Below, one piece after another: positions 3,681 through 37,885 of a stretch of DNA of 64,000 bases. A program made the position numbers and the translations under genes. The notes below the pieces were generated by a model. The model did no database searches. It saw nothing but the letters and a program-made list of their open reading frames with translations, and had not been told where the DNA came from. Numbering within the stretch: position 1 is the first letter of the stretch; each line of letters starts with the position of its first letter. Source of the DNA: Candidatus Woesearchaeota archaeon (GTDB taxonomy: Archaea > Nanobdellota > Nanobdellia > SCGC-AAA011-G17 > JACPIM01); NCBI GenBank assembly GCA_964513145.1, contig CAZELK010000001.1, forward strand, positions 32,001-96,000, given 5' to 3'.

Positions 3681-3960
3681 GTAGGCATCCCAGTTCAGAG
3701 CACACGAAGACAATAGCTACCCTGGTTTTTCCTTTGTTCTGCTACCCTAACGACACCAAATCATATGCTTAAGGCTGCTTTGAACAAGCTTAGCTTTCTG
3801 TTCCCAGCCTGACCTGGTTCACATATGAAATGACCCGCCAGGACAAAACATCATTGTACAAACCAAGACTATTATCTTAGTATACTCTTATCCGGGCCTT
3901 CAGTTTCCCATAAAGTCCGTTTGGAAAATGCAGAGGACTAGCCTGCTACCTAGCCTACGC
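3681..3960 (-). ncRNA. ffs: Signal recognition particle (7S/SRP) RNA, intron-containing
   Basis: About 280 nt, relatively GC-rich and non-coding. Terminal complementarity GUAGGC/GCCUAC. Helix 8 motif GAACCAGGUCAGG-CUG-GGAA-CAG-[18 nt]-AGCAGC-CUUAAG matches the bacterial/archaeal SRP domain IV consensus. A TATA box lies about 25 nt upstream. Confidence 0.78.
3780..3797 (-). other. Putative 18-nt bulge-helix-bulge intron in SRP RNA helix 8
   Basis: Central helix GAAC/GUUC, 3-nt bulges AGA and AAA, inner stem AAGC/GCUU, outer stem AGGCUG/CAGCCU (one G-G mismatch next to the bulge). Cutting after the 2nd nt of each bulge restores CAGG-CUG-GGAA-CAG-AGCAGC. Confidence 0.72.
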
Positions 3961-31824: not shown

Positions 31825-32217
31825 TTAATAAAAGTAAGCTAATAATCTTCCCCCTAAATTATTTGTTTTTGCTTCGTTATGCGTCATTACGCCCTTTGAT
31901 GTTGAAACTATCAAGAAACCAAAATCTTTTGCAGGCAAATATCTTTTTTCAAACTTTTCATAACCTGTCTTTTTTATATTGTATCTTGGCTTTATTGGTC
32001 CGCATTTGTTAATGTTCCCGAGAAGATCAATTTTAGCAACACCGCCTTTATTATTTTCCGTATATTTTATTTCACCAAGATAATTATTATTTTTCATAAT
32101 TTCAAGGATTACTTTAACTGTTTTTGACATCGGTCGAACTAAACAGAACTGCTTTCCTATTTTTTCTGCATTGTATATATTTGACAACGCAGTTGATAAT
32201 ATATCATTCATTGACAT
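31825..32217 (-). CDS. rps8: 30S ribosomal protein S8
   Basis: ND.L..AL..I.NAE, IN.CG.IKPR, YLPA.DFG.LIVST..GVMTH.EA. Confidence 0.95.
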   Translation of the reverse strand: MSMNDILSTALSNIYNAEKIGKQFCLVRPMSKTVKVILEIMKNNNYLGEIKYTENNKGGVAKIDLLGNINKCGPIKPRYNIKKTGYEKFEKRYLPAKDFGFLIVSTSKGVMTHNEAKTNNLGGRLLAYFY

Positions 32218-34788: not shown

Positions 34789-35110
34789 TTTCTATTACCA
34801 CAAAATTTTTCATTTTTGAAATTGGCTTGCATTCCATAATTTTTACTATATCACCTATTTTTATGTCTATGCAAGGAGTGCTATGAACATGTATTCTTGA
34901 TTTTCTTTTTTCATATCTTTCATATTTAGGCAAGAAATGAAGCCTAGGAAATTCAACTTGTGCTGTTTTTGCTGAACTTACTTTAGTAATTTCTCCAGTA
35001 AACAAATTACCCCTTAATTTAAGTCCGCTATGGAATGGGCAATGCTTGTCATCACATTTCTTTATAGGTAATTTTACTTGTACTCCTATATTTTTTTGTT
35101 TTTCTTTCAT
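34775..35110 (-). CDS. rps17: 30S ribosomal protein S17
   Basis: C.D.HCPFH..L.LRG, KYERYEKR.S....H...C, ECKPISK.K.FVV. Confidence 0.95.
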   Translation of the reverse strand: MKEKQKNIGVQVKLPIKKCDDKHCPFHSGLKLRGNLFTGEITKVSSAKTAQVEFPRLHFLPKYERYEKRKSRIHVHSTPCIDIKIGDIVKIMECKPISKMKNFVVIENESS

Positions 35111-35364
35111 TTTTTTAACCTATCCTCGGGCCTGCCTATTAATAATTCCCCATTAGTTTGTATTTCGTTTTTTCCATTTGAAATTTTTAATGTAACTTGT
35201 TTTTTTAGTATTGTCATTATTTTGTCATTATTTTTTATCTTGATTGTATTTTTAGTTTCATCTATTATTTCGCCCTGAATCCCAATCAAGTTCTTGTTTT
35301 GTGAATCTATTACTTCCATTTTTAACCCTATTAATTCGCCACGCAAAAAATCTTTTAAAACCAT
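35107..35364 (-). CDS. rnp1: Ribonuclease P protein component 1 (Rpp29/POP4)
   Basis: ELIGL..EV..S.N....GI.G.IIDETKN, G..L.GRPEDRLKK. Confidence 0.92.
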   Translation of the reverse strand: MVLKDFLRGELIGLKMEVIDSQNKNLIGIQGEIIDETKNTIKIKNNDKIMTILKKQVTLKISNGKNEIQTNGELLIGRPEDRLKK

Positions 35365-35366
35365 TT

Positions 35367-35675
35367 TTATCTTGTTTCTATTGAATCTGATGAAAAACCT
35401 AATTTTGTAAGTTCTTCCTTTGTTTTTTCTGCGTGCTCACCTTGGAGCTCTATTGTATCTCCCTTGACTGTTCCTCCACATGCGAATTTTGTTTTCAACT
35501 CTTTTGCGAGCTCTTTTAAATCAATCTCTTTTTTGTTTATTCCGTAAATGACTGTGATTAGTTTACCGAACTTTCTTTTTTCAATTTTGACTTTGATCCT
35601 TTGCCCTTCTTTAGCTATTGTCTGACAAACACAAAGGTCTCTAGGAAGACCGCATTTTGAGCAGATTTCATTCAT
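35367..35675 (-). CDS. sui1: Translation initiation factor SUI1 (aIF1)
   Basis: C..CGLP.DLC.C, R.FGK..T.I.G, LK.K.ACGGT.K...IELQG.H. Confidence 0.94.
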
Positions 35676-35895
35676 TCTTTTTCATACCTTTTCCTGAGTC
35701 TTTTGCTTGACTCTTTATTTTAGCTATTGTCAATATTCTTGCAATAGTTCTTCTTGTATTTTTTATTAGGGCTGGCTTTTCCAATGTGCTTCCCCTGGCT
35801 CTTTTTGCATTCAATATTATGAGTTCTTTTTTTAAATCTATTAACTTATTTTTCAAACTTTCCTCGCTTAGTTCTTTTATTTCACTTATTTTCAT
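35668..35895 (-). CDS. rpl29: 50S ribosomal protein L29
   Basis: [18 protein letters not shown]......RRTIARILT. Start ATG 35895; the track start TTG 35901 lies inside the IS left end. Confidence 0.92.
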
Positions 35896-36890
35896 TGGCA
35901 AGGATACCCCATCAGCTTGCTGTGGGGAGGAATTGCCCCTTTGTTAAGTTTATAAATATTTAAATCCTGATAATTAAGATGTTGATTAGGGCAACTGCAA
36001 AAATTAAGATTGAAACTAGACCTGAAATTATAGAAACTATTAGCCTCTATAGAAAAGGTCTGCAATTCTGTGTAAATTCTGCTTGGGAATTGAGGATTAA
36101 AAATAATATTAGATTGCATCCCTTTGTTTACAAAACTCTTAAAGAAAGTGGATTGCAAAGTCAACTGGCTATTGCATGTATTAAACAAGCCTGTGGGATT
36201 GTCAAAAAAGCCAAATCCAAACCGATTATTAATTTCTCTTTCATGGAATATGACTTCCCTAGGAGTGCTAGTTTCAAGAATAATATTTTGAGTCTTTCTA
36301 CAATAAAGGGCAGGATCAAGATTCCATTCCAAATCCCTGAATGCTATCAAATTTATTTTCAGGACTGGAGAGTTTGTGAAAGCATTTTGAACATTGACAA
36401 AAGGGGAAGATGTTTTTTTAATTTCAGTTTCTCCAAAGAGGTCAGCACAAAAGTCCCTAATCAACAATTCAGGGTTCTTGGTATTGATCTCGGAGTAAAT
36501 AATCTTGCTGTGACAAGTGACAACAAATTCTTCGGACAAAAGATTAAGCAACAAAGGATCAGGCATGATAAATTGATTAGTGAAATCCAAACTAAATGCA
36601 CAAAATCTGCTAAGAGAAAACTCAGAAAGATTTCTGGCAGATGGAGAAAGTTGATGGCTTGGACTAATCATAACATCAGTAAAAGTATTGTTGAACCATT
36701 GGATCAAGGAGATGTTATAGTAATGGAAGATTTGGTTAATATCAGAAAGACTGCTAAATACAATAAGTGGATTCATAAATGGGCTTTCTTCCAGTTGAGA
36801 AGCTTTATTGAATACAAAGCTTTCAGAAAAGGAATTAGGGTTGTCTATATTAATCCTGCTTATACTTCCAAAACTTGCAACAGATGTCAT
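35892..36890 (-). CDS. Antisense ORF across tnpB (332 aa), stop overlapping the rpl29 start; putative translation-relay ORF
   Basis: ATG start, same codon register as tnpB, ends CAA TGA with an ATGA overlap on rpl29. No recognisable protein motif. Confidence 0.4.
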   Translation of the reverse strand: MTSVASFGSISRINIDNPNSFSESFVFNKASQLEESPFMNPLIVFSSLSDINQIFHYYNISLIQWFNNTFTDVMISPSHQLSPSARNLSEFSLSRFCAFSLDFTNQFIMPDPLLLNLLSEEFVVTCHSKIIYSEINTKNPELLIRDFCADLFGETEIKKTSSPFVNVQNAFTNSPVLKINLIAFRDLEWNLDPALYCRKTQNIILETSTPREVIFHEREINNRFGFGFFDNPTGLFNTCNSQLTLQSTFFKSFVNKGMQSNIIFNPQFPSRIYTELQTFSIEANSFYNFRSSFNLNFCSCPNQHLNYQDLNIYKLNKGAIPPHSKLMGYPCQ

Positions 36891-37073
36891 AATTTAGATA
36901 CCTCTAGACACAATGGTTTTTTCAAGTGCAATACTTGTAATCATTCCTTGAATTCCGACATTAACGGAGCAAGGAACATAGCTCAACTCTACACGAGTAA
37001 AATGAGCTTGGCTTTTGTAAACAAGCCAACTATAACATGTGATGATGCCAAAGCATCTACAATTTCCGTATGA
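35979..37073 (+). CDS. tnpB: TnpB RNA-guided endonuclease
   Basis: RuvC I VLGIDLGVNN, RuvC II IVMEDL, Zn finger CNRC...CNTC, RuvC III NSDINGARNI; all three catalytic acidic residues intact. Confidence 0.95.
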   Translation: MLIRATAKIKIETRPEIIETISLYRKGLQFCVNSAWELRIKNNIRLHPFVYKTLKESGLQSQLAIACIKQACGIVKKAKSKPIINFSFMEYDFPRSASFKNNILSLSTIKGRIKIPFQIPECYQIYFQDWRVCESILNIDKRGRCFFNFSFSKEVSTKVPNQQFRVLGIDLGVNNLAVTSDNKFFGQKIKQQRIRHDKLISEIQTKCTKSAKRKLRKISGRWRKLMAWTNHNISKSIVEPLDQGDVIVMEDLVNIRKTAKYNKWIHKWAFFQLRSFIEYKAFRKGIRVVYINPAYTSKTCNRCHNLDTSRHNGFFKCNTCNHSLNSDINGARNIAQLYTSKMSLAFVNKPTITCDDAKASTISV

Positions 37074-37091
37074 TGAATTGAAGTTAAGCAT
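36894..37091 (-). CDS. Antisense ORF across the tnpB 3' end (65 aa); putative first leg of the translation relay
   Basis: ATG 2 nt after the rps3 stop; its stop lies 3 nt before the ATG of 35892..36890, in the same frame. Confidence 0.35.
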   Translation of the reverse strand: MLNFNSSYGNCRCFGIITCYSWLVYKSQAHFTRVELSYVPCSVNVGIQGMITSIALEKTIVSRGI

Positions 37092-37093
37092 AG

Positions 37094-37885
37094 TTATAAA
37101 TGCCCCGCATCTTGATGCGATTGGTGTGGTTTACTTTCTGGTTTTACTTCTTTTGTTTTTTTGGCACGAGTCTTTTTTGGCTTTTCTTCTTTTACCAATT
37201 CTTTAAGTTCTTCAACTGCCTTTGTATCCTCGATTTTTATTTCTTCTGCAGTTTTTTCAGATTCTTTTTTTAAAACAAGCTCTGCATTTTTATCTACTAT
37301 ATATACTCTATCAGGCAATGTTATATCTGGGGTCATTATACTAACTTTAATTCCGACAGTTCCGGATTTTAGGTTTGCTGTTGCTATCGCCCTTTTAATC
37401 TGATTAGCTGAAATATCCCCTGATTTTTTTAAATGGCCAGCTTTAAATCTCCAGCTTCTTGCCCTGGCACTAGGGACTTTTCCTGAAATTACTATTTCTG
37501 CTCCTGATGCGCCATGATCAAGAATGTCCTGCAATGTTTTGTATCCAATTGACTTGAATCTTTTAGAACCAAACTTTACCAATGTAGCTGATATTTTGTC
37601 AGCGACATAATAAGCGTCTAACATAGGGCTTTCTATTTCCCCAATTTCAATCTGGGGATTTTCCATTTTGAATCTTTTCTTCAATACATTTGTAAGTTTT
37701 TTTATGTTCTCTCCTTTTCTACCAACTACAAGACCAGGACGAGCTGTAAAAATTATTACTTTTTCTCCAAGGGGTGTTCTCTGTATTTCTATGTGGGAGA
37801 ATCCAGTTCCAACTAATTGAGATTTTATATGTTCTTGAACTTGAAATTCTTTTATTTTCTGGCTAACAAATTGTCTTTCTATCAT
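37094..37885 (-). CDS. rps3: 30S ribosomal protein S3 (last ~13 codons derived from the IS right end)
   Basis: MIERQFV, RTPLG..V.I.TARPG.VVGR.G, G.EI.ISGK, G..GIKV.I; the tail SKPHQSHQDAGHL is encoded by the IS hairpin. Confidence 0.96.
   Translation of the reverse strand: MIERQFVSQKIKEFQVQEHIKSQLVGTGFSHIEIQRTPLGEKVIIFTARPGLVVGRKGENIKKLTNVLKKRFKMENPQIEIGEIESPMLDAYYVADKISATLVKFGSKRFKSIGYKTLQDILDHGASGAEIVISGKVPSARARSWRFKAGHLKKSGDISANQIKRAIATANLKSGTVGIKVSIMTPDITLPDRVYIVDKNAELVLKKESEKTAEEIKIEDTKAVEELKELVKEEKPKKTRAKKTKEVKPESKPHQSHQDAGHL

Follow-up and report, generated by a model that had tools for sequence, protein, structure and literature searches.

A TnpB element at the junction of rps3 and rpl29

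The locus described here lies in a stretch of 64,000 nucleotides (nt) from a Candidatus Woesearchaeota archaeon (positions 32,001 to 96,000 of contig CAZELK010000001.1, G000:C1:32001-96000), which we refer to as the window and whose numbering is used unless another locus is named. The source genome is a metagenome-type assembly of 978 kb in 18 contigs, with a completeness of 98.8% and a guanine-cytosine (GC) content of 29%. On the minus strand of the window, open reading frames (ORFs) and Pfam matches define an archaeal ribosomal-protein operon containing rpl4, rpl23, rpl2, rps19, rpl22 and rps3, followed by rpl29, SUI1, Rpp29, rps17 and rpl14 onward. The junction between rps3 and rpl29 harbors a TnpB-only element of 1,239 nt, which occupies positions 35896-37134 of the plus strand and is oriented antisense to both genes. 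An initial annotation of the sequence had placed such an element in the overlap of the two genes within this ribosomal superoperon, and both its position and its ends hold. In the following, we describe the ends and target of the element, its contact with the start codon of rpl29 and a reading frame on the strand opposite to tnpB. The coordinates of its features are compiled in Table 1.

In-silico excision of the element restores an rps3 gene ending in PENENK and a stop codon that overlaps the ATG of rpl29, as had been anticipated, and the resulting sequence is the exact junction found in three genomes of the same genus (G001-G003), without any duplication. In these genomes, which provide the aligned empty allele, rps3 ends in ENENK or ENENQ and its stop codon overlaps the start of rpl29 within GAAAATGAAAAT. 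The empty site alone leaves a choice of one nucleotide (35896-37134 or 35897-37135), because both candidate positions are occupied by T. About 25 related elements, which originate from Woesearchaeota/Nanoarchaeota bins, all end in TTAC or TTAT, and since conservation in the family ceases directly after this tetranucleotide, the right boundary can be assigned to position 37134. The element contains neither terminal inverted repeats nor a target duplication, and it carries subterminal imperfect hairpins at both ends, as is characteristic of the IS200/IS605 family. It is present as a single DNA copy in the source genome, where searches revealed no further DNA copies and where a protein search gave only three distant TnpB genes of 28-32% identity (C7:14232-14870, C7:19233-19802 and C12:5714-6310), which show ordinary codon usage.

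Table 1. Features of the TnpB element and its flanking genes. Positions refer to the window; aa, amino acids; TAM, transposon-adjacent motif.
Feature	Position	Strand	Remarks
Target/TAM TTCAT	35891-35895	+	Core cleavage site C_L TCAT at 35892-35895; the minus strand reads ATGAA, comprising the rpl29 start and the overlapping TGA
Left end (LE), 83 nt	35896-35978	+	11-nt linker including guide GATA at 35903-35906; imperfect hairpin IP_L at 35907-35927 with bulged T at 35912; TATA-like box at 35950-35966
tnpB, 364 aa	35979-37073	+	PF07282 (1.4e-21), PF01385 (6e-9)
Omega-RNA-like scaffold (putative)	37010-37134	+	Overlaps the 3' end of tnpB as well as the right end; the window copy keeps 24 of the 27 consensus pairs
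Right-end (RE) core	37099-37134	+	Guide AATG at 37099-37102; hairpin IP_R at 37103-37124 with 3-nt bulge at 37120-37122; 10-nt tail; C_R TTAC at 37131-37134
Predicted guide of the omega RNA (16 flanking nt)	37135-37150	+	Antisense to the rps3 3' end; inferred from ISDra2/TnpB architecture (PMC8612924)
Antisense codon-aligned ORF 1, 65 aa	36894-37091	-	ATG 2 nt after the rps3 stop
Antisense codon-aligned ORF 2, 332 aa	35892-36890	-	ATG 3 nt after the ORF 1 stop; TGA at 35894-35892 overlaps the rpl29 ATG as ATGA
rpl29	35668-35895	-	Intact; ATG at 35895-35893 directly abuts the left end; PF00831 (1.8e-15); junction as in relatives
rps3	37094-37885	-	Last 13 codons and stop (37094-37134) come from the right end, replacing ancestral NENK and stop (ORF, Pfam and comparison with rps3 ends of G001-G003)

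Guides, cleavage sites and target

In IS608, the guide comprises the 4 nt located 5' of the hairpin foot and recognizes the cleavage site by pairing g1 with c2, g2 with c1 and g4 with c4, with A+16 pairing with T-3 and A+17 with T-4; 19 nt separate the left hairpin from the cleavage site on its 5' side, and 10 nt separate the right hairpin from the site on its 3' side (PMC5934647, PMC3201880). This rule, which the initial annotation had applied to locate the ends, is thus a genuine property of IS608, and the features it had identified in this way (IS608-like hairpins at both ends, the guides GATA and AATG and the sites TCAT and TTAC) are all found where they had been placed. The element obeys the rule at both ends, where GATA, for which the rule predicts TCxT, is matched to TCAT on the left and AATG to TTAC on the right. 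The same relationship covaries within the family. On the right, AAAG is combined with TTAC in at least 14 elements and AATA with TTAT in 8, while the window element combines AATG with TTAC, with guide position 4 tracking the last base of the site. On the left, the observed combinations are GATA/TCAT, GAGA/TCAT and GACG/TCAC, and the pattern GGATA-CCC hairpin-GGGAGGA is kept in relatives. The fold of each end hairpin is modestly stabler than that of shuffled sequence (z of about -1.5), and a repeat search with seed settings missed both hairpins, which were found by folding and inspection by eye. Their evidential weight stems from conservation and covariation across the family and not from fold strength alone.

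The TAM had been proposed to be TCAT, which is retained as core of the target in light of the left flanks of the family. As a complete motif it gives way to a longer one: position -5 is a T in about 17 of 23 elements, whose left flanks mostly read TTCAT, and TTCAT is therefore a likelier TAM than TCAT alone. We thus regard TCAT as target core and TTCAT as the probable TAM, as deduced from the flanking sequences on the left of about 23 elements. The suggestion to inspect other copies for a preceding TCAT found no material in the source genome, and related elements elsewhere are mostly flanked by TTCAT. Judged by its ends and flanks, the element was inserted 3' of TTCAT by the single-strand mechanism of IS608. 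The successful prediction of ends, target and empty site from sequence makes this approach usable for reading the TAMs of many uncultivated TnpBs.

TnpB, its putative RNA and the mobility of the copy

The description of TnpB as intact is borne out by its Pfam matches and by the presence of the RuvC residues D170, E250 and D327 and of the zinc-ribbon cysteines C300, C303, C317 and C320, as established by alignment to solved Cas12f/TnpB chains and by motif positions. Its closest homologue, P0002, shares 74% identity. A C-terminal truncation of tnpB was considered and ruled out, since its nearest relatives contain 355-364 aa and several likewise stop 46-69 nt before the right end. The protein is apparently functional. 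In the last approximately 125 nt of the element, RNAalifold applied to 24 family members found 27 consensus pairs, 23 of which show compensatory changes, and this conserved 3' structure reads as the scaffold of an omega RNA; a scan of positions 35700-37400 against Rfam at E<=1 gave no match. The 16 nt following the right end, which would constitute the guide, occur once in the source genome. In the left end, the TATA-like box is nearly palindromic, kept in relatives and located about 25 nt before the ATG of tnpB, a spacing which suggests a leaderless mRNA. Read on the opposite strand, the same box could also fire towards rpl29. The clade as a whole offers a set of compact archaeal TnpBs (355-390 aa) with a defined candidate TAM.

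As had been noted, tnpA is missing: the Y1 transposase TnpA (PF01797) was not found in the 98.8%-complete source genome, and no clade member has room for it inside the element. Among 41 related genomes, 12 encode TnpA. With the transposase missing from both genome and element, the latter is therefore non-autonomous, and we classify it on the basis of its sequence as a TnpB-only element of the IS200/IS605 family (IS1341-type). The base of the right hairpin, already suspected to be partly decayed, indeed falls short of the family consensus: of the two basal pairs which the latter contains, one is broken in the register of the alignment, and pairing by hand gives 2 base pairs (bp) and a 3-nt bulge vs 3 bp and a 1-nt bulge in the consensus. 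A larger deviation, which had escaped the initial annotation, concerns the left linker between TCAT and the hairpin foot, which measures 11 nt. All relatives whose left end is intact have 15-24 nt at this place, and IS608 has 19 nt. The short linker is, in our comparison of the ends, the more striking of the two departures. Together with the weak right hairpin base and the missing TnpA, it makes it plausible that the window copy is immobilized. In a related element (L041), the left-end hairpin is deleted and only the region of its 3' arm is left, about 60 nt before the start of tnpB, with the antisense frame still ending as ATGA on a host ORF of 73 codons. The right-end tail of this element, GGTGGTTTAC, is the closest to that of the window element, and L041-like copies may form a sub-lineage of immobilized elements.

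Docking on host start codons

The target TTCAT is the reverse complement of ATGAA, and the members of this Woesearchaeota/DPANN clade lie in antisense orientation directly 5' of the start codon of a host gene. For 14 elements, the target provides, with its TCA, the first stop encountered in the antisense frame, and this stop abuts a host ORF of 70-464 codons. A blind prediction on four further loci placed all four on a host start, with the predicted starts agreeing with independent gene calls. The overlap of stop and start as ATGA is shared with 18 relatives, and divergent members retain the contact as TAATG, TAGnATG or GTGA. For comparison, the source genome contains 4,912 ATGAA sites, only 6.5% of which look like gene starts.

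At its other side, the element reads GTAAC or ATAAC on the host-gene strand and often provides the stop of the upstream host gene. Genes ending on this right-end TAA encode an Ogg glycosylase, a T2SSF protein, an aldehyde dehydrogenase and the ribosomal protein gene product of rpl5, and many insertions have therefore hit ATGA overlaps, leaving both neighbors essentially unchanged. The last of these genes belongs to a 61%-identical member located at L063:2405-3691 in a Woesearchaeota metagenome-assembled genome (GCA_964494915.1, contig CAZBTP010000016.1), which is inserted antisense in the same superoperon at the junction of rpl5 and rps14. There, rpl5 stops on the right-end TAA (3688-3690) and an antisense frame of 406 codons ends as ATGA on the start of rps14 (2408).

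Three further arrangements were observed at the flanks of related elements. The element at L007:1136-2863 has on one side a gene for a MazE-like antitoxin that takes its stop from the right-end TAA and on the other an ORF of 85 codons starting on the target ATG, and may represent an insertion inside a toxin-antitoxin pair. The left flank of L036 (about 400-470) contains the apparent right end of another clade element, with a hairpin and a tail ending in GGTCAT whose terminal TCAT is used as target, which suggests a tandem or nested insertion. Longer variant left ends with different or extra hairpins are found at L035:1316-1500 and L032:~1380-1500, and in L035 the antisense frame closes about 110 nt before the host ATG.

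A stop-free frame opposite to tnpB

The codons TTA, CTA and TCA, which read as stops in the codon-aligned antisense frame, are nearly missing from tnpB. Its 364 codons include one TTA, no CTA and no TCA, and codons 1-305 contain none of the three vs about 19 expected from the usage of the host (P of about 2e-12), whose Leu codons are TTA in 55% and whose Ser codons are TCA in 29% of cases. Downstream of the rps3 stop at 37096-37094, the single TTA at tnpB codon 306 closes a frame of 65 aa, which is followed by the second, longer ORF listed in Table 1.

This property, which was not part of the initial annotation, extends to the entire clade. In 23 members of 37-100% identity, the codon-aligned antisense frame contains 1 stop in about 6,860 codons vs 256-922 in the other four frames. 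The pooled counts amount to 0 of 498 for TTA, 0 of 498 for CTA and 1 of 533 for TCA. A general avoidance of codons ending in A is ruled out as cause by the normal use of ACA, CCA, GCA and AAA. As negative control, the three distant TnpBs of the same genome carry 19-36 antisense stops each, and the avoidance fades below about 35% identity. In a truncated and AT-drifted clade copy of 41% identity and 27% GC (L011, in G001, contig C27), 28 TTA, CTA or TCA codons are found, and the avoidance of mirror stops is thus, as far as this copy indicates, lost once the gene decays. Together, the codon counts demonstrate family-wide selection against antisense stops.

In the clade, the antisense frame spans 330-400 codons and runs on through the left end to the TGA that overlaps the host ATG. 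An element length divisible by three was considered as a family rule and discarded: the window element fits with 1,239 = 3x413, but its relatives leave remainders of 0, 1 and 2. Searches with both antisense ORFs of the window and with 8 downstream host ORFs matched no Pfam family.

A proposed relay of ribosomes through the element

The explanation that we consider best, with a probability of roughly 0.7, is that of an IS608-type TnpB-only element docked on the start of rpl29 and equipped with an antisense relay frame compatible with the surrounding operon. In the proposed mechanism, the complex of TnpB and omega RNA would cut the empty site, composed of TTCAT and the rps3-side flank, and in this way favor retention of the element (PMC8612924; bioRxiv 10.1101/2022.10.12.511977). 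Transcripts of the operon would read through the element, and ribosomes would translate the junk antisense frame, in the window as a chain leading from rps3 to the 65-aa and then to the 332-aa product, before terminating on ATGA and re-initiating at rpl29. Such a relay would keep the downstream operon translated and its RNA covered, and elements of this kind could therefore live in essential operons. The geometry required for termination and re-initiation is found in the window, with a TGA/ATG overlap at rpl29 and gaps of 2 nt between rps3 and ORF 1 and 3 nt between ORF 1 and ORF 2, where the antisense frame would be translated and coupled to rpl29. The termination factor FttA/aCPSF1 acts on RNA that is not followed by ribosomes, so that translation across the element might at the same time guard against polarity. 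This factor is encoded in the source genome (PMC11616081). Coupling at stop/start overlaps is documented in archaea (PMC6728339).

For the clade as a whole, we somewhat favor the view that its elements are operon-transparent, in that the target places them on host starts, the right end supplies the upstream stop and a selected mirror frame hands the ribosomes on. Several observations weigh against these readings. The long antisense ORF begins at different places, its start shifting by more than 150 nt from member to member. In several relatives, the antisense frame has a stop near the right end, and its next ATG follows only after 111-219 nt; a continuous relay of ribosomes from the upstream gene, which we had considered for every element, is therefore rejected as a general rule, and ribosomes would have to initiate de novo in these cases. 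Three members with variant left ends (L032/33, L034/35 and L059) terminate the antisense frame within these ends and short of the host ATG, and two distant ones (L008 and L023) violate the right-end guide rule by combining AAAT with TTAC. In the window itself, rps3 does not stop on the right-end TAA; it was not a partner of the ATGA type and therefore extends into the right end for 13 codons. Finally, family members are related by descent, and counts across them overstate their independence.

Alternatively, the antisense frame could be a true overlapping gene encoding a protein of use to the element, such as one that regulates or assists TnpB, and its end on the host ATG would be a by-product of using the constant target TCA as stop. 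The conserved length of the frame of about 330-400 codons would agree with this, as would an ATG that usually follows soon after the upstream stop, often antisense of a zinc-ribbon His codon. We nevertheless regard such a gene as unlikely, given the lack of a Pfam match, the variable start position and a composition resembling the mirror of a protein rich in Lys, Glu and Asn. Moreover, its stop is provided by flanking host DNA and the contact is kept in divergent forms such as TAATG, TAGnATG and GTGA, for which coupling offers the better explanation.

It is also conceivable, although improbable, that the window copy is an inert passenger with an idle, inherited antisense frame, and that expression of rpl29 and of the genes following it relies on read-through transcription plus independent initiation or on a promoter in the left end (35950-35966). 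This scenario is compatible with two features ahead of the rpl29 ATG, the AT-rich TATA-like box at a distance of about 55-70 nt and a G-rich stretch at about 10 nt, and the one internal antisense stop and the undocked rps3 of this copy also lend it some weight. However, neither tnpB nor the left end contains antisense stops other than the TTA at codon 306, despite the preference of the host for TTA and TCA, which argues for ongoing or very recent selection, whereas the decayed relative L011 has gained 28 such codons, and both restarts in the window follow within 2-3 nt of the preceding stops. Considerations of a different kind concern the assembly, since a single-copy element with a GC content of 35% vs 29% in the genome, found in a metagenome-type assembly of 18 contigs, could reflect a chimera or an insertion confined to a minority of cells. 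This we consider very improbable: a separate Logan assembly of run SRR12113422 (L052) contains an identical contig of 2,684 nt, which corresponds to positions 35100-37783 and spans both junctions, these junctions are base-exact for the family target and right end, and a sister element resides in another ribosomal operon. None of the three alternatives explains the docking of stop on start as well as translational coupling.

The element itself is a further member of a well-known family. By contrast, its docking on start codons and its stop-free mirror frame appear undescribed for TnpB elements, and a search of the literature on TnpB or IS605 combined with antisense ORFs or translational coupling found nothing relevant. 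If the clade-wide design is real, it would constitute a novel means by which a DNA transposon lessens harm to its host, acting at the level of translation. Self-splicing IStrons are comparable in spirit. The design would also explain how insertion sequences persist in essential operons of gene-dense, reduced genomes, and how such an element could colonize essential ribosomal-protein operons, for which the insertions at rps3/rpl29 in the window and at rpl5/rps14 in L063 provide two independent cases.

Comparison with known systems

The element resembles IS608 from Helicobacter pylori and ISDra2 in its subterminal imperfect hairpins with a bulged base and in its 4-nt guides pairing with the cleavage tetranucleotides (PMC3201880, PMC5934647, PMC8612924). 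It further shares with both the distance of 10 nt between the right hairpin and the cleavage site on its 3' side, and it likewise inserts, without duplication, 3' of a short target that is fixed. Its TnpB, with a putative right-end omega RNA and a candidate TAM equal to the target of the transposon, would fit the same scheme. Unlike in these systems, tnpA is contained in neither the element nor the genome, and the target is TTCAT and not TTAC or TTGAT. The pair AAAG/TTAC, which is found at the right end in the family, is the left-end pair in IS608, whose left linker exceeds that of the window copy by 8 nt. The stop-free antisense frame of the clade is not reported for either element. Archaeal elements of the IS1341 type similarly contain a stand-alone tnpB with a structured RNA overlapping its 3' end, whereas work on these elements describes haloarchaeal sense transcripts and neither antisense coding capacity nor docking on start codons (PMC4615843).

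With respect to its proposed function, the antisense frame is related to gene pairs undergoing termination and re-initiation at ATGA or TGATG overlaps, as it ends in ATGA on a host start and contains restarts 2-3 nt after stops (PMC6728339, PMC10666635). It differs from such pairs in that the upstream partner does not belong to the host and is instead the mirror frame, non-coding in appearance, of a gene carried by a transposon. The nearest analogy to this mirror frame is the reverse ORF of ambigrammatic narnaviruses, which is kept open and whose translation is needed for persistence (PMC8316113). In both cases, a codon-aligned reverse frame is free of stops across the entire gene as a result of codon avoidance, and in both it is translation and not the encoded protein that is the proposed function (PMC8316113). 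Narnaviruses, however, are RNA viruses of eukaryotes, whereas the clade described here consists of DNA transposons, in the window residing in an archaeal operon, with a reverse frame that is docked on the start codon of a host gene.

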